Positions 12,055-30,957 of a stretch of 64,000 bases of DNA are shown piece by piece. Source of the DNA: Kondoa subrosea (lineage: Eukaryota); the NCBI GenBank assembly GCA_039545335.1, contig BCIN01000001.1:1981129-2045128 (forward strand), read 5' to 3'. A model generated the notes under the pieces. It did not search any database and was not told the DNA's origin. It was given only the letters and a program-made list of their open reading frames with translations. Every line of letters starts with the position of its first letter. The stretch's first letter is position 1. Made by a program: the position numbers and the translations under genes.

Positions 12055-13525
12055 TCAGTGAGACGCCAGAGCTGAAGCTCCGTCCGAGACACCACTTTCT
12101 GCTGCGTCCACATCCGCATCGTTGTCAGGGGAAGTAGAAGAAGTCGAAGTAGATCCACCATTAGCAGCGTACTCAATCATAGCTTCTTTATAGGTAGCTG
12201 TAGCCTGCTGAGCTTGTTCCAAGAACGGCTGTCAATACAAAAAGCATACAATCAGATTTGAAACTGATGGAGGATAGTTTCAGTACTGACCTTCTTTTGC
12301 TCCTCTGTCATAGCTCTCCATTCATCTCCAGCTTTCTGAGCAGCGGCAGAGAATTCCTGGATACCCGAAATGTTGTGCTTGGTGGAAGGTACACCACTGA
12401 GTCGAGATTTCTCTTCCATCTTCTCTTCAGCTAATAGTTTGGCTTCATCCAACCAGTTGGCATCTTGTCTTTGAGTATCAAGGTAGATGAAGAAAGCGGA
12501 CATAGGCCTCTTGGGTTTCTTAGGATCACTGTACATGAAGGAAGTCTTCCATCAATATTGAGATTGATTGGAAGATCCTGGCACGTACATGAGGTTCTTC
12601 TTCGAAGAAGCACCTGATTTTCTTCTCAGTGATCTACGAAGGTTCTCTGATTTGACTTGCTCGGGCGTTAGAAGACTGATGGCTTCCGCCAAATCGACTT
12701 TATATTGCTTTTTGACCTCTTCCAAGCGAACAGCCAAATCCTGTGCATCCAATCATTATTCTCAGCTACATGGTTAGCTGGGACAATAATGTAGACGCAC
12801 ATCTTTCTCCGATTGGGATAGTTTCTTATAATCTTCTGCAGCTTGGTGAGCTGATTTAGCAACACTGAACTTCTCTCCTTCAGGAACGCTAGCTTTCAAT
12901 TCCTGTGCCAAGCAACCAATACCTCATCAGTCTGAAACTGAAAGAGCATATGGATCGCACGCACGGGTAATCGCTCGGTATAGTATAGCACCCAAGTTGA
13001 AGAGATGCGTTTAGGTAATTTAACACTTGGTGGTAGTTTGGGTTTGGTAGCTGTGCATACAACTATCTGTACGTGTTCTCAACACTGTAGAGCACACAAC
13101 TCACCTGTAGCTTTCTTGACAACCGGTTTCTTTGCAGGAGTAGCTTTCTTTGCTGGCTGCTTCTTTGCTTTAGGTGCCGCTTTAGCTTTAGTAGTAGTTG
13201 AAGCTTTCTTGGAGGTAGTCGCAGCCTTCTTCTTTGGTGCAGCTTTAGCCTTTGTAGTAGAAGCTTTGGCTTTAGTAGTAGAAGATGTAGCCTTTTTCGG
13301 CTTCTTGACTACAATCTCATCAGCATCCTTATCTTCTTCTATAATCTGCTTCTTGGCAGGTGACCATGTCTTTGCAGTGTATGACAGAGACCGGGATAGT
13401 AGAGGTGTGTAGGATGATGATGAGGGGAAGGCTGGCTTGAGCGCGATGGATTTGGAAATACAAGCGCGAGTAGCGACTGAGCGCAATGCTGAGGCTAACG
13501 TATTAGGTACACGGCGATAGAGCAT
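12055..13525 (-). CDS. Mitochondrial HMG-box DNA-packaging protein (Abf2/TFAM-like) with a Lys/Ala-rich H1-like linker
   Basis: Arg/Ser-rich presequence MLYRRVPNTLASALRS, K/A-rich region, and two HMG-box-like units (PKVKLPKRIFST..; PKKPKRPMSAFFIYL..AGDEWRAMTEEQKK|PF). Confidence 0.8.
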
Positions 13526-13738
13526 AGTGAGAGGGCGGCTGTTTCAGGTAGACAAAAGAGAGAGTCCAACGGGCAGCTCTGGGAAACAAAGCGCGATTTA
13601 GCATCTGTGAAATATTGTCATGTGAAAGATCTATCACAGATTTCCCTAACCTGAGTTGTTTTCTTTCCTTTCTCAGGCCGAAGAACTCAAGGATGCCTCT
13701 TTGATACCCTGAGTGACCTGATACAATCATAGCTGACA

Positions 13739-15692
13739 ATGGAGGAACCGCGAAGGGTGGTCAAGTCTCCAATCACTTCAGTCCATTCCTTCAGCAAACC
13801 CACGAATGCTGCTACCAGAGCTTCACCTAGCAATGTTCTGAAGGCCAGAGTAGATCTATCCTCTTTACCTTCACCTCCTGGCCTTAATCAATCACAGCAA
13901 CGAAGTCAACAGCAGCGGCCAATTGTAGTGACAGCCAAAGTATCGTCCAACAATGTATCTACACCTACTTCAAGCCCATTTACTAGACCTGCTTCAGCTG
14001 GTGGAAGACCTATTACTTCTCGACTGAGTACTCCACCTATAGCTGGCAGCAATACTTCAGGCGGAGCGAAGAGAGCAAGGACGAAATCCATGATCGATCC
14101 CACTACACCGGACAACTCACCTTCTCTCACTGCAACTTACGGAGGAAATAGATCTACACCTCGTGGTATAGCAAATGCAAGTGTTGTTGGTACAGATCGA
14201 CAAGGTTCTCGGACACCTACTTCACCTGTCATGCGAAGAACTCAATCCACTCAACCTGCTGTTCAAATAATCAATCGACCTAGGATGAGGAAGATCTCAG
14301 CTTCATACACCAATGCGGAGCTTTTACCTCCAGTAACGATTTCGCCTTCTTATCTTAACGGATCAACTACTTATACTTCCACTTCAACATCAAGTGATTC
14401 TTCTTCCTCTTCTTCCGCAAAATCTAAATTAGCTCAATCAACCAATTCCATCTTCCCTTCTTCTACCACAATTACTACCACGTCTAATATCAACCAATTA
14501 ACTAAATCAACATCCTCCTCCAATATTTCTCCTTTGATCAGAAGGAAACCAGCTTCAGTTCATCCTAAAGAAGTAGTAGAAGAACCTCTTTGGTTATCTC
14601 AACCACCACCTTCTCCTGGTACAAATAGTGGGAGGAAAACCTCAGTAAGACCTAAAAGTAGTGCTGGTCATGCAAGAAGTCAAAGCGCTGATTCTGCTTC
14701 TTCAATGGGTATCAAATCCGGTTTGAGCGCAGTAGCTTCTAGTGGTGGTGGTGATGAGAGTGAGAAAGGTCAAAGTCAAGGTGTGACGGAAGAGTGGTTT
14801 GTTGCCAGAAGAGAAGAAGAAAGAGCGAGGGAAAGAGAAAGGGAAGCAAGAGAACATCGAAAGGTGCACATATGACCCCCTCTTTCTTCTTTGTGTTTTG
14901 CTAATTGTTATTGTGATTTTTGGGATTAGATATTGGATTTGGAAATCACAAACGCTTCCTTAGTAGCTCTGAACGCGACTTTGGAGAAATCCAAATCGAA
15001 ACAAGCTAATGAAATTAGAGAGCTACGTCGACGTATTCGAGATCAATCTTTACATTTACCTTTTCCTCCTCTACCTTCATCTCCAACACGATCAACCGAA
15101 GACGAAGAAGATGACGAAGATGATGAGGAGATTAGTTGGGAAAGAATGCTGCAAGAAGATCCAAGGTTCAAAGAGGTAGCAAGAGTGATGGAATCTTTAG
15201 TGAGAAGAGGTGAACAAGCGATTTCAGCACCAATGCATTTTGGAACTCGAGTATTAGGTGAAGGAGCTCATGTAAATGTCGGTGGGTTGAGGAAGCGGGA
15301 AGAGAGCAGTGACTCGCTGGTTGATGAGAGTCTGATGGATTCGAGGGATACATCCATCGACGAAGAGGAAGAGGAAGAAGAGGATAGCAATAGTCCGCCT
15401 AGGATCTTGCCTAGGTATAGTGAATTATCAACGGTATCCGAGCCAGAGGTAAGTACAGATTTAATCATTTCAATCCATTGTATGCTAAGTCAACATTGGA
15501 TAGGGACATCTGGCTGGCTTCAAAGTGGAAGACTGGAAGAAAGCTCAACCTCTTCATCATATTCCAGCTTCTCCCCGTATGCATTCTTTTGCCGAAGCCA
15601 ACTCTGCACCTCTAACACCCACTTCTTCAGCCTTTTCTACCATTAGTCAATTCTGGGGGTCAAGTCCGAAGTTGCCGTTCTCCAAGCAATGA
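13739..15692 (+). CDS. Ser/Pro-rich hypothetical protein with a coiled coil (RKxxDLEITNASL motif)
   Basis: ORFs 13739..14875 and 14933..15646 join through an intron (HRK|ILDLEITNASLVALNATLE); the last exon ends ...KLPFSKQ* at 15692. Confidence 0.75.
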
Positions 15693-15914
15693 TTTCGTCG
15701 TTCAAGTGTGTATAAAGTATGTAAAACGCCCCCCTTTTGTGTTTGTGATTTGTATAGTACCATGTAATTACGCATAGATACGGTCATTTTGATTATTATT
15801 TTGCAAGCTTCGGGTATTTGCATGTCAGCAGACGATCTCTCTACGTTCAAGGTATGTGTCCGTTCATGTAGTTCATAACAGAAACTAAGCTTCTTCTGCA
15901 GTGTATTCCCCTCG

Positions 15915-16142
15915 CTTACATGACTTCTTTTGCTGCTTCCTATCACCTCTTCTTCCGCGCGGAGTAGTGCTCAAATGTCTCCAGCATTGGGCCTGATCTT
16001 CAGTTCTTACCATTTGTCTTGTGCTTTGATTATATATGCTTGATCTCCTGGTTGAAATTGGGCTGCATCGGACCGGAAGAGACGCAGTTGTTGCCAGGTC
16101 CAATAGCTCACGACTTGAAATACAAGCTCGCGCTCTCGGGCA
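15915..16142 (-). pseudogene. Distal fragment of the decayed gene interrupted by the RPS13 inverted-repeat block
   Basis: Open frame ARERELVFQVVSYWTWQQLRLFRSDAAQFQPGDQAYIIKAQDK up to a GTAAG donor at 16010. It is in frame with the 20280-side fragment when 16143-20279 is removed. Confidence 0.5.
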
Positions 16143-16615
16143 TCTGCAAATTTGCATATATCGAGAATCTAGTTTCTTAGCCTATTTATCTTCCTTCTTA
16201 ATTCAACATGATATATCACAAAAGGCACGTCGCTGACTATGTAAGCTTCCTGACAGTCTCCTCGCCCAGCTTCAACCAACAACAGAGCAGCAATAAGTAA
16301 GTTTCACTTTATCTCTTTCTATCTCTTCTGTGAAGCCCTGAACTGATTTTTAACAGATCATGGGACGTCTACACAACCCAGGAAAGGGCATATGTCAGTT
16401 TAGGCTGCTTTGCGCCTTGTGCCTTCATCGTTGACTTTGAAGATCTCTTGGCAAATCAGCCGGATCTGCTCTACCTTACAGACGAGCACCCGCTAAATGG
16501 GTCAAGGCTACTCCTGAAGAAGTCGCTGATCAAATCTTCAAGCTCGCCAAGAAGGGTATGACTCTCTCGCAAATCGGCATTGTCCTTCGTGATTCGCACG
16601 GAATCGCTCAAGTCA
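16143..16615 (+). repeat. Left arm of a 473-bp inverted repeat (RPS13 promoter + 5' UTR intron + codons 1-63)
   Basis: Reverse complement of 19807-20279 with no indels and 7 substitutions by my count; paired coordinates all sum to 36422. Confidence 0.97.
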
Positions 16616-16663
16616 GTTTTTATGTCACGTCAATAGGCACTGAAATCTTGAATGCAGGTCTAA
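16360..16663 (+). pseudogene. RPS13: Truncated duplicate of 40S ribosomal protein S13 (uS15), residues 1-63, carrying P47L
   Basis: [63 protein letters not shown]; homology ends at 16615. The conserved TPSQIG reads TLSQIG here. Confidence 0.9.
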
Positions 16664-16696
16664 TGTTATAATCAGGTACAATCACTGCTTGACAGA

Positions 16697-18064
16697 CTAA
16701 TGCTTCAGTGCTTTTGTGCCATATTTGTTGACAATAGTGCCAGGTGTTTGTGTCGTCTGCTCGGGTGACAGCAAGCTATTGAGCTGGGTAAGAGTCTTGC
16801 GGGCATGGTCTGTTAGATGCTGTTTAATGTGGGCGTGTGATTGGATTTGAGGGATAGCTTCATCGTAGTGAATACAGCGATCGCTTTTGCAATCAGTAAG
16901 ATGTTCGGCAAGCTCGTACTCCCACAAAAAGGCATAGACGAATGTGAGCAGAAGAGTGGTCAGATGTGGCGGGAATGGGACAGTATATAGTTTTGCTTTC
17001 GTCTCCTTCAAGAGGTGAATATCGTGATTGAAATGGATCTTTGAGCAGTGAAAAACACATAGATTGAGCGTGGTCATTCCACTCTCCACCGGAAAAGAAT
17101 TTGAATAAAGCGTTGTATTCAGACTTGTAAGAGCTGGCTCTATCCTGGTAAGACCTTTCGAAAGCACGAGAGATGTTGCGAAAGTGCGGCGCAAGCGTAG
17201 GATGGCATACCGGAATCTTGGTATGATTGGCAATAGGATACAATTGATGCTGTTTCGGTGTTGCTTTAGCCAGCGGACTTGTCATGTCTATGATCATGTT
17301 GAGTAGTTGAGAGCTGAGATCAAAGTAACTTACAACCATCAAACTTGCGTTGCTCATTGTTATCGTGCTTGCTTCTCAGATATGCCTGCTGATCAATCTG
17401 CAGGGATGCTGAAAGACTTCTACAGGTGGTATACCAATCATTCAGAGCTTCCTCGTATGAGGCACCAGCTCGACAAGCGTAATCTCGATGTGTGAATGGC
17501 AGATGAAAACGCATTTCCGCTTGATAGGCTTCCATGTTTCAACGAAATCGCTGGTTCCAAAAGCATTCTGTACACATCTTTCCGTTCGTGAAAGCGACGT
17601 CCTTCGAGCCGGCGATTTTGACAATGAGGAACCTATCGGAGGACGTCTTGTAGGCGCGTATAAAGGGAGTCAAGTAGCCAGCATGTTCGAGTGTAGTGTG
17701 GCCGTCTTTATCAACATCTTTGCGATAAATGTAACTCATAACAGTGTCGATGACACAGCGCGAGAGCTGATCGAGGGAAACGTGCTGCTTGTTTTCTTGC
17801 TTTGATAGCTCCTGCGCACTCCAGAAATTCTCTGGGATAGCCTCGAATTGTATCCCTCGTCGACAGACTGGAAGAAGATGGGCTTGTGTCTTGGGTGCAT
17901 CTCAGGAGCAGTAATATTCGCAGAGCGTAAGACATCGTCATAAGCCAAAGGGGAAGGATGACTTCGCTCTAATTGAGAGGCAGTGTCAGTTACGAGCGCT
18001 GAGCACAACTACGCGCAAATGTAAAGGACTTACTGCTAGAATTCAGACAGATTTCTTGAGTCAT
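16697..18064 (-). pseudogene. Decayed ORF of unknown function with a Cys/His zinc-finger-like segment
   Basis: ATG 18064 and canonical introns (donor near 18033 / acceptor 17969; 17333-17288). Protein-like segments are split by an apparent frameshift near 17850, an in-frame TGA at 17539-17541 and a second shift near 16960 (CPIP..FLWEYELAEHLTDC). Confidence 0.6.
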
Positions 18065-18309
18065 AGTTGTAGCGGTCGTTTTCGATCAAGAGAGAAGAGA
18101 GTCAAAATAGAAGACGCAAAGCAAAGGCGGTGAAAAGACACTCGCCACGAAAAAGCAACGACAGAGTAGAGGAAGTGACGACAGAAAGCGAGACAGGACT
18201 GCATCACGTGTTTGCTCGCTTGAAGGCAGAGACAACCACAGGTGAAATAGCATCTGAGAGCTGAGCAGAAGGAAACTTCATTCAAACGCAATTGATGCGA
18301 TCTGTAGCC

Positions 18310-19035
18310 TCATATTGGGCTATTCAGCTTCTCCCATTCGCTTCGAAGTATCTATGGCATAATATATGGTGAGAAACCCTTTACCATGAGCAATTGCGTA
18401 CTTACGCCCATGATCACTTCGTCGTATAGTTTTCCTTCGTAGTACCAGCACTGCCTGATCCTTCCTTCTTCCACTATAAATCGCCTTGATCAGCAATGGT
18501 ATATCAGGGCAATCAAGCCAGCTGACCGAAACCTATTCGCCGATAACACTTCTCTGCGCCCATGTTGACAGCAAGATAGTCCAGTGATACGCGGTTCAGG
18601 TTACTGTCATCAAGTCTCAGCAGATAACATGCCTGCGGAAAGGAATACCCACAAGTCTAAGAAAGCTCGCTCAAGCAACCATTTGATAGCTTCCGTGCCC
18701 AATCCTTTGCCAACGCAATCGCTGAGAAACACGATTCCCATAGTAGCATCTCTATGTCTCAACCCTCGAGCTAAATTGGATGCTGTGTGCGAGTTGAGAC
18801 TGATCAAACCGATGTCTCTATTGGTCTCCCTTTCGACTAAAATAGCAGAAAAGAGAAGAGTACTGAGTTGTTCCAGTCGTGCTGTGGCTTGTTTCCTACT
18901 GCAGAGCTGGGTAGACGGTCGTGCACTTGCCAAGGAAGCGAGAGGATCAGCATCCAGTGCCAATATATGATCGATATCTTTGTCTGTGTCTGGATTGACT
19001 GCCCGACAATAGAGTCTCGGCATTTGAGGAAGCAT
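18310..19035 (-). CDS. GNAT family N-acetyltransferase (RimJ/RimL-like, Acetyltransf_3)
   Basis: IGLISL, GIVFLSDCVGKGLGTEAIKWLLERAF (acetyl-CoA motif A), LNRVSLDYLAVNMGAEKCYRRIGFVEEGRIRQ and DEVIMG|ILRSEW; three GT-AG introns; frame intact. Confidence 0.9.
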
Positions 19036-19371
19036 CGTGATTCGTATAGAATGAGAAGGGCCGCAGGACAGGTTTATCGGAAACAACGAAGCTCAGGAAT
19101 TTGAAATGAGACAATGAGACAACTCAAAGGGCCCTTGTTCAAGAACAATTGGAGGCACAGGCTTGATTGCGACGTGAAGCCTAGTCAGCTTCGCTGGGTG
19201 GTGATAACGTGGTTGAGGTGGGACAGCTGTGGCACATTTATAATCAGATGCACGCCGGCCCGTGAGCGAATGAAGCGACTAGTAGTCAATGGTGCACTAG
19301 ATTGAAGGCATGGAACGAAGCGTGAATATGCAATGATCTCTACTCTGCGCTTCACTAAACCCCGAAGCAAA

Positions 19372-20062
19372 TTACGAAACCAAAGTGCTGGCCATTTGAG
19401 CGTCGTACTTGAAGGTAGGTGCCTGCATCCATTGATCAGCAGGTAGTCCATGCGTGTGCTACGATACAAACGTACGACTTGAGCCTTAGTTTTGTAGTAT
19501 CGAACAAGTCGGTGAATTCTTGATTCAACGAGAATGAGTCTGTAGGCAGACGCACTAGACATGAGTACCACTACAGTACACATAATCGGCTACTCCTACC
19601 TGAACTTGGAGTCCATGTCTTTTCTGTTGCGTTCGAGATGCTTTCGGATAGAGACAGCCTTCTTGATCAAGCAGTACAAATCTTCAGGAATAGTTGGTGC
19701 AAGACCTGTCAATGTGCACTTATCTGAGTGTGAGATGACACTACAACTCGTGCGCACTGACCGTTTGATTTCAAGATACGTAGAATTTTGTTACCAGTGA
19801 CAGACTTGACTTGAGCGATTCCGTGCGAATCACGAAGGACAATGCCGATTTGCGAAGGAGTCATACCCTTCTTGGCGAGCTTGAAGATTTGATCAGCAAC
19901 TTCTTCAGGAGTAGCCTTGACCCATTTAGCGGGTGCGCGTCTGTAAGGGAGAGCAGATCCGGCTGATTTGCCAAAAGATCTTCAAAGTCAACGATGAAGG
20001 CACAAGGCGCAAAGCAGCCTAAACTGACATATGCCCTTTCCTGGGTTGTGTAGACGTCCCAT
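19372..20062 (-). CDS. RPS13: 40S ribosomal protein S13 (uS15), full length
   Basis: Spliced [119 protein letters not shown]. Confidence 0.98.
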
Positions 20063-20279
20063 GATCTGTTAAAAATCAGTTCAGGGCTTCACAGAAGAGA
20101 TAGAAAGAGATAAAGTGAAACTTACTTATTGCTGCTCTGTTGTTGGTTGAAGCTGGGCGAGGAGACTGTCAGGAAGCTTACATAGTCAGCGACGTGCCTT
20201 TTGTGATATATCATGTTGAATTAAGAAGGAAGATAAATAGGCTAGGAAACTAGATTCTCGATATATGCAAATTTGCAGA
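19807..20279 (-). repeat. Right arm of the 473-bp inverted repeat (part of the functional RPS13)
   Basis: Reverse complement of 16143-16615; the outer end contains the perfect palindrome TGCAAATTTGCA. Confidence 0.97.
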
Positions 20280-21006
20280 ATGCTCCAGGCTGAGCTTGCA
20301 TTAGGCAGTGAGGGATTGACCCTGGCGATGATCACTCTGGCCGGTCGACTGGAGCCAGATGCATGTCCAGAAATCAAGCACATAAAACCGAAAGATGCAT
20401 CCCAGTCCATTCGAGAGAAGACGACTTGTTATAGTGCAGAGGGTATAATCCATCGTATAGCAATGAAATATAGGCTTGGACACTTACGAGAGCTTGAAGC
20501 TGAAAGTCGGTCGTCGAGGGAAGAGACTGCATTAAAGATTTTTGACAAGACACCTTTCACATCAGCTGTGAATCCTGAGGCTCCGGAAAAGACAGTAGAC
20601 TAGCTGAGGCATATAATAACACTACAAATTGGCTTCCATGAGCTCCCTGAAGCTATTGATCATTCCGGTTGAGCCGAGTTTTGGCTGAGAACCTTTTTTT
20701 GCGAAGGGAGCAGTTTCTCTCGTTGTGAACACCAAGAAAGGTAAGGCTCTATTCTTGTTGGCAGTCGCAATCTCTGTATACCACGCTGTGATATCCTGCA
20801 TGAGTAAGAATCGTCTGCCTGCATACTTCCAGCTTGCAAAATCTCGACAATTGCAATTGGCCGTCAACTATAGGAGCTGCTCTCTGTAACAGCATCTGCA
20901 TCTCAACATATGCTGAGCACAAGGAAGACCTGCAGCATCATTCCATTAACGTGCAAGCGCCTGCTAGCTTGTCATGAAAGTTCGACCAATGGCAAAACTT
21001 TATAAC
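20280..21006 (-). pseudogene. Proximal fragment of a decayed gene, possibly a DUF3435/Crypton-type tyrosine recombinase remnant
   Basis: Protein-like frames with stops: ITAWYTEIATANKNR..GMINSFRELMEANL* and VLSKIFNAVSSLDDRLSASSSRKCPSLYFIAIRWIIPSAL*QVVFSRMDWDASFGFMCLISGHASGSSRP. The family call is pattern resemblance only. Confidence 0.4.
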
Positions 21007-21244
21007 AATGCAACGCAAATCTCGTTGTATTTGCATCTTACTAGCAGCAAATGATTGTGGCCGCTCAACGGATGAAGATTTCGAGCACCTGCCCAATCAT
21101 CCAAATCGCCAAAATTGCATTCACCTTTGCAAGATTATCGCGCTTTGCGGTTTTCCCCCTGTCTTTCTTTCTTCGTGCACTCGCCTATTCTCAAAGTCAT
21201 CCCTTTACTAGAATGTGAAGCTCATTGTGTTGTATTATAGCGCC

Positions 21245-22337
21245 ATGAAGCTAAACGTCGCCAACCCGTCTAGTGAGTTATCTTGCACTTGATCTTCTGA
21301 TGTATGCTCATATCTTCCCTACAGCCGGACAACAGAAATCCTTCGATTTCGATGATGAACGCAAGACGTAAGTCGAGTTTTTGCGTCTTGCTTTACTTTA
21401 CTTATTTCAATTTTATAGCCGTGTCTTCTACGAGTGAGCCTCTCTGCTTTATAACGCAAGAGCATCATCCCTGAATACCAGTGTGACTTGCGCAGAAAAC
21501 GCATGTCGCAAGAAGTCGCTGTAGACTCTCTGGGTGATGAATGGAAGGGATACGTTCTCCGCATTATGGGCGGTAACGATAAGCAAGGTTTCCCAAGTCA
21601 GTGTATCCTTAGACGACGCAGGAATATTGCTCACGTCTATTCAATACCGACAGTGAAACAAGGTGTCCTTCTACCTTACCGTGTTCGCCTTCTTCTTTCC
21701 GAAGGTCACTCCTGCTTCCGGGAACGCCGTGATGGTCAACGCAAGCGCAAGTCCGTTCGTGGATGCATCGTCGCTGCCGATATCGCCGCTCTTTCCCTCG
21801 TTGTAGTCAAGCAAGGAGATGCCGATATCCCAGGTCTGACCGATCAAGTCTTGCCCAAACGTCTTGGTCCCAAGAGAGCTACCAAAATCAGACGCTTCTT
21901 CAACTTGTCAAAGGACGATGATGTTAGAAAATTCGTCATTCGCAGAGAGGTTGTCAGCAAGAAGGAAGGCGCTAAGCCTTACACCAAAGCGTACGCGAAA
22001 TCCACGAGTATGACTACTGTAGTGTCTAATTGTGATGATTTGTCGTACAGTCCCAAGATCCAGAGATTGGTTACTCCTCAGCGCCTCCAACGCCGCCGTC
22101 ACTTGCGTGAGTTGCACAGGATAGCAATCTCTGCTCAATGCTGATTCTTGTCCTTCTTGACTCACAGGCTCTCTCCAAAAGCGCAAGACCGAATCTCAAA
22201 AAGAGCAAATTGCCGAATACAAGGTTATCCTCAACAAGCGTGTGGAAGAGAAGAAGGCCAAGGTCACTGCTGCCAAGACTGCTGCCAAAGAAAGACGATC
22301 CAAAGCTGCTCCCGCTGCCACTGCTACCAGCTCATAA
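21245..22337 (+). CDS. RPS6: 40S ribosomal protein S6 (eS6), 7 exons
   Basis: MKLNVANP.., [65 protein letters not shown]. Confidence 0.98.
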
Positions 22338-22767
22338 TTTTTCCCTTTGAAGTTCACAGAACGGGCGGAAAAGCATTTTTTGGGCGTTTGATCTTTAGCA
22401 TCTGGTTTAGCTTGCATTTGTACTCGTCAGGGCTCTTGCAATAGATCTGCTACTAGGCATCGCACGCATTCTGCCCGTGACTTGACCATATGAACTTATG
22501 AAATTGCAAAAATCGACTCCGCTTGACTCATTTGATTTGATTGTTTCCGCACGCTCAACGACCACATATCCACTAGACTCTACATATACTTGCTTCTAGA
22601 TATCGCGATTCCCTCCGGTAGATCGGCTGGGTGCGAGCAAGGTTCAAGCTTTGTTAATCTCTCCCCTGGTAATCTCAAATTGTAATTTCTCAGACAAAGC
22701 TCTGTTGAGCTATTCTGACTTCAGACTGATCAGCAGAGTACCCTTAAAGTACCTATTACTTCCTGCA

Positions 22768-23420
22768 ATGGCTTCCAGCATGCTATGCCTCCGTCTTTGC
22801 CTTCTGTCCAAACCTCTGTCAAGACAATTATCTTCAACTCGACCTCTTTTCGTAGACACTGAACAAATGATCAAAGTCACAGGCGATGCGGTCAAGAAAT
22901 CTCTAGCTCGGAAAACTACTACCTCAATTGACGATCTCCTCAATTCCTCCTCTTTAACACCTTACAATCGTCGACCTGTTGAAAGAGTCAAAACATTAGA
23001 CGAACGTTGGTCCGAAACTACTAGAAATCAAACACTTTCTTTTGGATACAACAATACTGGAATTGTTGTTGGTGGTAGACCAACACCTTATTCTTCAAGA
23101 ACAGTTAAAGTGAAACCTAATGCCACTTCTACTTCAATGGGAAGAAATCCTACTGCTAGTGTGAATGATTTGACAACGGCTTGGAAAAAGTTGCATGTTA
23201 TTATGGGTGAAAGCAATGTTAGGAAAGAATTGAGGAGGAATGTACGATATGAGAAACCTACGTTATTGAGACAACGGTTGAACAGTGAGAGGCATAGAAG
23301 GAGATTCAAGGTTGAAGTGGGGAAACAGATTAGTGAACTAATGAGGCTGAAGAAGAAGGGTTTGGTAAGTCTGCTTTGCTGCTTTCGGCGGTCGAGGTCT
23401 TATGATTTGCTTGATAGTAA
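22768..23420 (+). CDS. MRP21: Mitochondrial ribosomal protein bS21m
   Basis: Presequence followed by AWKKLHVIMGESNVRKELRRNVRYEKPTLLRQRLNSERHRRRFK. A GTAAGT intron after KKKGL leaves only the TAA in the last coding exon. Confidence 0.88.
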
Positions 23421-23581
23421 TGCATCGAGATGGTCTAACAGAGACAAGCGCAGAGCACGGTAATACATGTATATTGCATAAGAAAGCATGAGAAGTCGTT
23501 TACAATGGATGATTGAATCAGAGCTAGCACAAATACAAAAGCCAGGCCGTATGACAAGTAATACAAAGAGTAGCATTCTAC

Positions 23582-27732: not shown

Positions 27733-30700
27733 ATGGACGACATCCACGTTGTAGACGCTCGCAAGAAGCACGTTACAAATGTTCGGCGTTCTTTAAGTCA
27801 AGACATCCTTCAAAAGACTCCCTTCTCAGTCTGGCTGGTCTTAGCCGTAGTCTTTGCGATCTCTGTACTCTATCTTCGCGTTGTTTTAGCCAAGAAAGCA
27901 GCCTCCGCCAAAGCGGTCTTGAACCAACGAAGAAAAGCTGGGATTCCAGATTCAGACAAGAGACCTTGGAGAGTTGCGTTTGTAGATGCGGAAAAGGCTA
28001 GGTTAAAGAGAGAAAAAGAAAAGAATGATTTGTTGTTGATGCAAAAACGACCTTTGGTGCGATCTGCTACCAGTAATGCCTCATTGGCTGTACCTGCTTC
28101 TCCTTACGGTTCACCGCGAATTGGAGCTAAAAGTCCCCTGTCTTATCAATCGCAGCACAGGGGTCAGTCTAAGCTTTTAATCGCAATGGAGTGCACCTCT
28201 TATGCGATTGTGATGTCGCTGACAGCTTCAGCGTCTTCTCACTCCTTACCACAATCCAGAAGTGCTTCAACTTTCATTGAACGTAATGCATCACCTCGAC
28301 CAGAAACTTATCGACGACCATCCTTCACACCATCGCAATCTCAACTTCATCGTAAGTTCTGTTCACATTCTTACTCTCTGTCATACATTATACTTGATTC
28401 TTGACTTTAAAGTAGAAGAATCACGTCAAGCTTCTCCTGCTCCTTCTCAATCTGGAAAACCTAAGCTTATTCGTTCTCATTCCGAGATATCTTCTTTCGA
28501 ACCAGATCGAAAACGTCAAAGGCAAATAGAAGATGCTTCAACCGATGTAGAAGAAGAAGAGGAGCCTGAAGAACCACAACAAAAAAGAGGGGAGAAGAGA
28601 AAACAAGTAGCTCCTGATACACCTGAGAATGATTATTCGAGTAGTAGTAGAGGAACTAAAGGAAAGAAGAGATCTAAACCTAATCCTGGAGGAAGTGGAA
28701 GGAAAATACCCGGTGCTATTGATGAAAACCAAGATGAGGAAAGTAGTGGGAAAGAGGACGAAGAGATGGATGTGGATTCCAAAGAGAAAGAAGAAAGTGG
28801 AGGGAAGAAAAGATCCAGAGATGAAGATGATGATGAAGATGAAGCATCTGTAGCACCCTCTAGAAGTCCGCCAAAGAAGAAACGAAATAAGAAAGAGAAG
28901 ATCGCTGCTGCTCCGAGTGCTAAAAGTGAAAAGAGCTCCAGAGGACGTCAAAGAGAATCCAAGTGGACTAATCTGGTGGGAGAGAAATTCAGACTGGACG
29001 AAGAGGGTAGAGAAATCAAGCTTGTTGAAGTAAAGGAATGGAGATTGAAGTATCAGATGGTCAGTTTGAGATACTTTCCTCAGCGTAGTATTGATGGTTC
29101 TAATTTCTGCATCTGACAGCCTGCAGACTCTAGACATCCCGACAAAGACCTCAAAGAATTAGTTGTTGTCGAGAGATGGGTCGATGAAGACGAATTCAAT
29201 AGTCTGAAGAAAGCTTCAATGCTAGGTTGGCAGCCTGCACCTGACTCTACTTCAATGGACGAATCAAAAGATGAGGACATCAGCATGTCGATTAGCGAGA
29301 TCGAGGTTAGTCAAGTCGTGGTAAATTGAGTCCTGAAGCTCAAGTGCGCCTCGTCGATAGTCTGCAAATTCTTCTCGCGACTTCACAAAAGGCGAGAAAT
29401 CTCTCTTCTATGCTCGCGGAACTGGAACACCTCTTCGCTCTACCACGCCTCAAGGCAAATTACCGACAGCTTCAGCAGCTACATCCGCATCGCCAAAATT
29501 AGTGAAGTCAGTCATTTATCTTAAGTTCTGCGATCCACACTGATATAGTATGTAGCGGTCGCTTCCGTTTACCTTCTAGTACTCAGGCACCAAGAAGAAG
29601 TCTCGGGCTTTTGCGTGATGCTAGTGGATCAGCACCTCGGCTGAAGAAACGATCTAACACTCCGTCAGATCTGAATGCCTCTCAGAGCTTTGACAGTCCT
29701 TCTGTATCGCTCATCGGATCGAAAGAGCCATCTCCTCTTCCTTCGGCTAGCGCTAGTCCAGTTCCTTCTTTCAGCTTTACTCCCAGTCCTGCGCTAGAGA
29801 AGTCGGAAAAGCCAGTCGAAACAAAACCTGCTTTCTCCTTTGGTCCTACTGCCCCGATAGCAAATGATCAAAAGAAGGAAGAGACCGTCAAACCGAGTTT
29901 CTCGTTTGGCCCTCCAGCAAAGGCATCTGTAGCCGCCGGAGCGCCCTCCTTTTCTTTCGGTACCCAGCCAGCTGTAACGTCGACTGAAGTGAAGACCTCC
30001 GCAGCTGGTAAGTTTGTCGATCGGCGTTATTTTCAACCACTAATTATCATTCTAGCTCCATCACCTTCTTTTTCTTTCGGGCCCGCCCCTGTTAGTAGTA
30101 TACCTGAAGCAAAGAAGGCTGATCCTGGTAAGTACATTCGGTGTATCTGTAAATCTGTGAAGGCTAATCACGCTTTAGTTCCTACTTCTGCATCGCCATT
30201 CTCATTTGGCGCAACTCAAGTTTCTGCTTCTTCTACGCCGCCTGCTACTCAGACTACATTCAACTTTGGTGCACCTGTGCCATCATCAAGTGCACCTAAA
30301 CCAGCATTCAGTTTCGGATCGCCTGCTAAGGTTGAAGAATCCAAGCCGCCTACGAATACATTTTCTTTCGGTACAACATCATCTACTATACCCTCTAGCG
30401 TGAATTCACAAGCATCTAAACCGATCGAAGCGTCCAAGTCTGCCTTCAGCTTTGGCTCGACTCAAGCTACACCAGCATCTCAGCCTCAAGCTACCTTTTC
30501 TTTTGGCGCATCATCTAATCCTACAGCTAATCCGAGTTCCAGTGCAGTCAATCAACCTGCATTCAACTTTGGCACATCGAATACTCAACCTCAGCAAACG
30601 ACACCTGCGTTCTCTTTCGGCGCCTCGTCTAACCCTGCAGCTAATCCGAGTCCCAGTACAGTCAATCAGCCTGCATTCAACTTTGGCACATCAAATACCC

Positions 30701-30957
30701 AACCTCAGCAAACGACGCCTGCGTTTTCTTTTGGTCAGCCTGCTCCTACTCAGACTGGGTTTTCTTTTGGCTCATCCACACCGAATTCAAGCTTTGCTCA
30801 GTCGCCAGTTGCATCGCCAGCTCAGCAACAGCCTGGCTTCAACTTTGGCGCTCCATCCAGTGCTCAACCCGCGTTCAATCCTGGTTCGACAACACCAGGT
30901 GCAACGAACCCAAGTCCTGTTCGGCCTGCTAGGCGGATGCCTGTCAGAAGGAGGTAG
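27733..30957 (+). CDS. Membrane-anchored FxFG-repeat nucleoporin (POM121/Nup153-like architecture), about 8 exons
   Basis: N-terminal TM helix (FSVWLVLAVVFAISVLYLRVVL), basic NLS-like clusters, 16 FSFG/FNFG motifs and a basic tail RPARRMPVRRR*. I checked the splice junctions between the ORFs and they stay in frame. Confidence 0.8.
30496..30735 (+). repeat. Internal 114-bp (38-aa) tandem duplication within the FG region
   Basis: FSFGASSNP(T/A)ANPS(S/P)S(A/T)VNQPAFNFGTSNTQPQQTTPA occurs twice, starting at 30496 and 30610. Confidence 0.9.

Follow-up and report, generated by a model that had tools for sequence, protein, structure and literature searches.

We analysed a 64,000-nucleotide (nt) stretch of the Kondoa subrosea genome (GenBank assembly GCA_039545335.1, contig BCIN01000001.1, positions 1,981,129 to 2,045,128; hereafter the window) in which the 5' part of RPS13, the gene for ribosomal protein uS15, is present twice in inverted orientation, once as part of the intact gene and once as a fragment. 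This structure is probably an old inverted partial duplicate of RPS13, the core of which was homogenised by gene conversion at a later time. A preliminary description of the locus had proposed an invertible ribosomal-protein switch with the geometry of flip-flop mating-type systems; our analysis does not support switching, and we do not regard the repeat as a programmed switch. In what follows, the fragment is the left arm, which adjoins flank A, and the 5' part of the intact gene is the right arm, which adjoins flank B on the side of the ribosomal-protein gene RPS6.

A repeat search of the window recovered the inverted pair 16143-16615 and 19807-20279, with arms of 473 nt each that lie 3191 nt apart, and a base-by-base comparison gave seven substitutions and no indels (98.5% identity), as had been described. 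There is no second inverted repeat of at least 60 nt in the window, so chance is excluded. Both arms contain the core upstream region of RPS13, the intron of the 5' untranslated region (5'UTR), exon 1, intron 1 and codons 1-63, and they end one base into codon 64. The high-identity arm reaches back just 217 nt from the ATG and so can include no more than the core promoter; the 5'UTR intron and codons 1-63 attributed earlier to each arm are there, and of the promoter the core at most. One of the seven differences lies upstream of the gene, one in intron 1, three are synonymous (in codons L16, R20 and V33) and two are adjacent in codon 47, which reads CTC (Leu) in the left arm and CCT (Pro) in the right. 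Four codons differ in all, and Pro47/Leu47 is indeed the sole amino-acid difference. Codon use is uninformative for polarising the synonymous differences, as CTA and CGA occur in RPS13 too. Repeat-induced point mutation (RIP) was considered as a source of the differences and rejected: RIP prefers a CpA context, and although five of the seven differences are C/T, none has that context. An Rfam search of 13000-23500 with E up to 0.1 returned no match, so the arms hold no small nucleolar RNA (snoRNA) or other known RNA.

Of the two copies, the right arm is the resident one. It alone is joined to the RPS13 3' half, as first noted, and an intact frame of 151 aa is read there on the minus strand, join(20062..20029, 19962..19762, 19705..19600, 19539..19476, 19422..19372), with GT..AG introns of 66, 56, 60 and 53 nt and a 5'UTR intron of 60 nt at 20125..20066. 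The gene stands head-to-head with RPS6. When RPS13 exon 2 was used as a query against metagenome contigs, we obtained 80 loci, all distant, with RPS13 identities of 53-85% to the query (the best being 85% over part and 78% over nearly all of it). Scanning these loci with a degenerate pattern that represents a conserved RPS6 peptide gave a match in 15 of the 80, in all 15 on the strand opposite RPS13 and 584-840 nt upstream of the exon-2 match; the other 65, many of which are short, have no exact match to the pattern. In both loci checked with Pfam (L010 and L018), Ribosomal_S6e lies beside Ribosomal_S13_N. Downstream of RPS13 these two loci are unlike each other, and neither has a GNAT gene there. 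The distance between RPS13 exon 2 and the RPS6 motif is about 1600 nt in the window, compared with 584-840 nt in the 15 loci. Judging from this comparison, the divergent RPS6-RPS13 pairing is ancient and has been kept in the window, which makes the right arm resident and the left arm derived. The same polarity holds at codon 47: all 81 tblastn hits from the 80 loci have proline at this position, so Leu47 is the derived state.

The homology between the two copies does not stop at the outer edge of the arms. Over the 119 nt that abut the left arm and the corresponding region upstream of RPS13, 84 of 109 ungapped columns match (77%), with 15 gap columns and about 11 indels. This alignment scores 31, against 9.6 +/- 1.6 for shuffled sequences, a value reached by none of 1000 shuffles and by none of 922 random chunks of the window, the best of which scores 16. 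The alignment shows no similarity farther out than 16024 and 20394. On the inner side the breakpoint is clean at 16615|16616, and inward of the arms the homology is not significant, with a score of 11 that 353 of 1000 shuffles reach (10.1 +/- 1.9). The same 8-mer, ATCTTGAA, does occur at 16645-16652 and 19770-19777, at an equal offset of 30-37 nt beyond the inner breakpoint.

The Jukes-Cantor distance is 0.015 in the core (7/473, no indel) and 0.27 in the adjacent 119 nt (25 mismatches in 109 columns), a step of about 18-fold across one base position, 16142|16143. An outer homology of 77% with indels means that the duplication is old and that the core was homogenised later, and with the introns as well kept as the exons, selection is no explanation for the step. 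To judge by the aligned sequence, the duplication was originally one of about 592 bp that began 332 nt before the ATG, ended at codon 63 and took in both introns. The simplest reading of the step is that the inner 473 nt were overwritten by gene conversion between the arms, long after the duplication. As in concerted evolution, the identity of the arms is far above that of the adjacent homologous sequence of the same duplication. The fallback of the preliminary description, a one-off rearrangement with a decaying left arm, comes near to our finding; a simple recent event does not fit the 77% homology outside the arms.

Short-read contigs from two DNA runs of one sample (X1 and X2) were placed on 14500-22000. 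This sample is probably the source of the assembly, and the contigs are thus not independent support for it. The flank A, interior and flank B contigs each enter the arms by exactly 30 nt and have equal single-copy depths (55.2, 54 and 54.6 in X1; 139.8, 134.9 and 140.5 in X2), and the shared arm piece has about twice that depth (101.8 in X1, 239.1 in X2). The three middle differences are represented in X1 by both of their allele sets, recovered as separate 99-nt pieces with depths of 68.6 and 47.4. The double arm depth, the four single-copy junctions and the presence of both alleles show that there are two copies and that all four junctions are present in the reads.

We propose the following history. 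About 592 bp of the RPS13 5' region would have been copied in inverted orientation to a place on the far side of the GNAT gene and of an orphan open reading frame (ORF), 3.2 kb beyond the breakpoint. The left copy includes promoter and introns and is therefore derived from DNA, not from mRNA. It may have arisen in a single step, as an inverted insertion templated between flank A and the orphan ORF by a template switch or break repair, or in two, as an inversion with staggered breaks that one homologous flip then turned back. The same structure results from both routes, and we slightly favour the insertion, as it takes one event instead of two. The outer 119 nt would then have drifted to 77% identity, and the inner 473 nt would have been overwritten by conversion and have acquired seven substitutions since, P47L among them. 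The repeat may now be a passive substrate for rare homologous inversions that would leave RPS13 whole and affect nothing but the sequence upstream of the crossover.

Several points weigh against this history. Six of the seven arm differences lie within 120 nt, which a single uniform conversion tract does not explain; when differences were placed at random, this clustering was seen in 2314 of 100000 trials (6558 of 100000 with the adjacent pair taken as one event), a weak hint that there may have been more than one tract. The case for gene conversion is built on two sequences, without an outgroup to date either step, and conversion would imply that the arms interact, a trace that recurrent flip-flop would leave too. 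No contig spans an arm, so that neither the orientation of the interior nor a mixture of orientations is readable from the contigs. In the left copy the core upstream region is still intact, the two introns remain and the S13_N domain is whole, so that it could be in use, and the copy has survived for long in a genome assembled at about 19 Mb. Finally, had there been just one inversion with staggered breaks, RPS6 should now adjoin the fragment and flank A the intact gene, and the window has the reverse; the staggered-break route thus needs one further homologous flip.

Other explanations can be set against an old duplication with later conversion. A recent one-off duplication of about 0.5-0.6 kb without conversion, in which the outer 119-nt match is due to chance or is a scar of error-prone repair, would be the simplest history, and it agrees with the clean inner breakpoint and with a core difference of just 1.5%. 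We nevertheless think it unlikely: the outer similarity is collinear with the arms, abuts them and has a score that shuffling does not approach, and as a scar it would have to combine about 25 substitutions with about 11 indels within 119 nt, beside 473 nt free of indels. To our knowledge, such a mutation density is far above the output of repair synthesis. That the structure was made by the assembly, through a haplotype merge or a mis-joined repeat, is very improbable. Inverted repeats made by assemblers are on record in the report on yeast mating-type loci (PMC6692504), the runs used here are probably the assembly's own data, and their contigs stop short of crossing an arm. Against this stand the doubled arm depth in both runs, the single-copy contigs that enter the arms, the two allele sets and a diverged outer homology that goes beyond what an assembler can produce.

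Whether the left arm does anything is a further question. Its frame consists of codons 1-63 followed by 18 unrelated codons and TAA (81 aa). Exon 2 of this arm matches positions 13-60 of the 60 of the Ribosomal_S13_N profile, and the S15 domain, which would have to be in the same frame, is absent, so the left copy is unable to make uS15. In searches of protein collections with the 69-aa frame of exon 2 plus tail, no match took in the tail; the 11 hits are all ordinary S13 pieces, the best with 82% identity over 74% of the query. We take the left copy to be a relic, probably non-functional, kept young by conversion. It might instead be a working gene or promoter that gives an 81-aa protein, a chimeric transcript or an antisense transcript of the interior, or a decoy in RPS13 regulation. 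Such a role would suit the near-identity of its core upstream region, 5'UTR intron, exon 1 and intron 1 to those of the working gene, its persistence over a long time, and a break that falls three residues past the end of the S13_N domain. The junction also creates GTCAGT at 16612-16617, the hexamer of the RPS13 intron 1 and 2 donors. We give a working left arm little credence, given a substitution (P47L) at a residue that is proline in every homologous hit, the drift with indels in the upstream 119 nt, and the lack of any protein match to the tail. The GTCAGT hexamer sits in phase 0 after codon 62, and a left-arm transcript could in principle be spliced onward from it.

The proposed switch can be examined from the coordinates. 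When the arms cross over at a position x, everything between the two crossover points is turned round, the interior as well as the arm parts next to it, and each flank keeps its own outer arm part. The claim that such an exchange would still yield one full-length RPS13 is therefore geometrically correct. With the L47 codon 50 nt from the inner arm end, an exchange would have to fall in the last 49 of the 473 nt for L47 to be joined to the gene body; elsewhere P47 stays with the gene body, which leaves little of the suggested exchange of uS15 variants. The suggested exchange of upstream context does stand: after a flip, the only changed sequence is that upstream of x, where flank A and the drifted 119 nt replace the RPS6-side region. 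In common with flip/flop loci, the segment is bounded by inverted repeats (473-nt arms of 98.5% identity). Such loci also have two alternative gene sets at the ends of the segment, and here there is one RPS13 3' half only, the other interior end being the 3' end of the broken orphan ORF. GC content is 0.43-0.49 in every 2-kb bin of the window, and we saw nothing in the 64 kb that looks like a silencing site, be it telomere-like, AT-rich or repeat-rich; chromatin state is not readable from sequence. It is for want of an alternative cassette and of a visible silencing site that the flip-flop switch of the preliminary description is not supported.

A recurrent or programmed cassette, in which exchange between the arms often flips 16616-19806, RPS13 toggles between an RPS6-shared context (B) and that of flank A, and selection keeps the repeat, appears to us even less likely than a recent duplication or a working left arm. 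The geometry permits it, with RPS13 whole in either state, there has been at least one exchange of sequence between the arms, the structure has been retained despite its age, and an origin by staggered breaks would require one homologous flip to reach the present state. Flip/flop repeats that contain gene parts are known as well, for example the 3' end of SLA2 and the 5' end of MATa1 among those reported (PMC6692504). On the other hand, the arms are short, the seven differences, one of them damaging, have not been homogenised, and outside the last 49 nt both states would make the same protein, in addition to the missing alternative cassette and silencing neighbourhood. Mismatches suppress recombination between inverted repeats. 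A long-lived toggle maintained by conversion, in which the RPS13 body and the GNAT gene flip between the RPS6-RPS13 divergent promoter region and flank A and the present orientation may be the flip product after a staggered-break inversion, is just as doubtful. If it were true, a clonal population would have two expression states of an essential ribosomal protein.

An old duplicate homogenised by conversion shares traits with several known systems. Sex-chromosome palindromes and plastid inverted repeats (IRs) undergo arm-to-arm gene conversion, and the RPS13 repeat resembles them in an arm identity far above what the age of the duplication would give and in the sharp edge of the homogenised domain. 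It differs in its far smaller scale, in a homogenised domain smaller than the original duplication, and in that one arm is a truncated gene piece without evident function. Like ordinary partial duplicates and relic pseudogenes, the left copy is truncated, has no C-terminal domain and carries a damaging substitution; unlike them, it is inverted, lies 3 kb from its parent, keeps promoter and introns, and was secondarily homogenised.

Inversions with staggered breaks offer another comparison. In Drosophila, inverted duplicates were reported at the breakpoints of 17 of 29 inversions (Ranz et al., 2007; PMC1885836), with sizes from 46 bp to 1.9 kb (median 321 bp), often degenerate and with a mean identity of about 88%; in 12 of 18 inversions the duplication came from one breakpoint only (PMC1885836). 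As there, sequence that was genic and ancestrally unique is found inverted at both ends of a segment, one copy is degenerate, and the size of the RPS13 duplication (about 592 bp, core 473 bp) is within the reported range (PMC1885836). The RPS13 segment is just 3.2 kb, unlike the Drosophila inversions, its core has been re-homogenised to 98.5% instead of the mean of about 88% given for the fly duplicates (PMC1885836), and, unlike in a single staggered-break inversion, the intact gene adjoins its ancestral neighbour RPS6 and the fragment flank A. Flip/flop mating-type switching is described for Ogataea, Komagataella and Ascoidea (Krassowski et al., 2019; PMC6692504), where recombination between inverted repeats inverts the segment; the inverted repeat around a segment and the gene part within it are alike in the two cases, with an arm of 0.47 kb here and a 2-kb repeat in Ascoidea (PMC6692504). 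The RPS13 locus differs from these yeasts in having one gene body and neither an alternative cassette nor a silencing site visible in the window. A literature search combining RPS13, inverted repeat and inversion gave organelle-genome papers only, among the matches listed.

Table 1. Features of the RPS13 locus (positions in the window)
Feature	Positions	Strand	Details
Diverged stretch outside the left arm, derived long ago from the RPS13 upstream region	16024..16142	+	aligned with 20394-20281
Left arm, near-identical copy of the RPS13 5' part	16143..16615	+	includes 5'UTR exon and intron; exon 1 at 16360-16393; L47
Foreign tail read from the left arm	16616..16671	+	18 codons and TAA at 16669-16671
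Arm differences (left/right)	16177 T/C; 16447 C/T; 16473 A/C; 16485 A/C; 16524 C/T; 16565-16566 TC/CT		
Broken orphan reading frame	16700..18008	-	frame changes; in-frame TGA at 17539-17541
GNAT acetyltransferase gene	18310..19035	-	4 exons, 3 short introns; PF13302, E 2.5e-07
Intact RPS13 (uS15) coding region	19372..20062	-	5 exons, 151 aa; PF08069
Right arm, resident 5' part of RPS13 in native context	19807..20279	-	P47
RPS13 upstream region	20281..20394	-	77% identical to 16024-16142, local alignment
RPS6 (eS6), head-to-head with RPS13	21246..22144	+	ATG read at 21246; PDB eS6 matches to E 1.5e-67

The genes between the arms, namely the RPS13 3' part, the GNAT gene and the broken frame, are all on the minus strand. 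The GNAT gene is apparently intact in its reading, and a search with it against metagenome contigs gave 596 pattern matches and 0 confirmed relatives. For the broken frame, Pfam assigned no family to any of six pieces, the best ESM Atlas scores (0.82) were under the usable level, and two word-index searches for longer proteins found no relative. A full HMMER scan gave one hit (P0002) that shares only a motif of about 30 residues. This motif (C-x-P-x-L-x-P-H ... R-I-Y) lies in 16896-17375 (minus strand), and P0002, a 2061-aa protein of unknown function, has at least six repeats of it. The window holds no second copy of the broken frame, and thus nothing suggests a transposon. The interior had been described as the RPS13 3' half, an intact GNAT gene and a pseudogene; the first two agree with our reading, and the third is plausible but unproven for a frame with frame changes and a stop for which these searches gave no relative.

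Short motifs recur at the outer edges of the arms. A perfect 12-nt palindrome lies at 16145-16156 and at 20266-20277, in either arm 2 nt in from the outer end and at the point of the fall in identity from 98.5% to 77%; these are its only two matches in the window, and it might serve as a binding site or mark a conversion boundary. The octamer ATTTGCAT is found at 16150-16157, 20265-20272 and 21029-21036, in the sense orientation about 205-215 nt upstream of the ATGs, and so precedes both RPS13 copies and RPS6. With seven matches in the window against 3.3 expected, it may be a promoter element of ribosomal-protein genes.

A gene with a Ribosomal_S21 domain, perhaps of a mitochondrial type, lies at 22600-23463, just downstream of RPS6, which places three ribosome-related genes within 4 kb. 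The sole direct repeat found in the window is a tandem duplication at 30491-30718 (114-nt unit, 88% identity) inside a long open frame, 29506-30957. Among the 80 RPS13 loci, one from an unrelated organism (L043) has a second, inverted copy of exon 2, the two copies starting about 100 nt apart. It is a metagenome contig of 1035 nt with an 871-nt palindrome (104-969) at 79% identity, which may be a foldback artefact or a pair of diverged head-to-head paralogues.

The RPS13 locus of K. subrosea would thus show on a small scale how two known processes can affect an essential gene, which was first duplicated in part and in inverted orientation and then underwent conversion from arm to arm. Were both orientations present in one culture, it would be a noteworthy inversion toggle on a ribosomal-protein gene outside a mating-type locus. 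The divergence of the core and that of the outer homology, which are about 18-fold apart, provide an internal clock for the locus. A repeat that looks young, here at 98.5% identity, can mark an old duplication, which matters wherever duplications are dated, or called recent, from identity alone.

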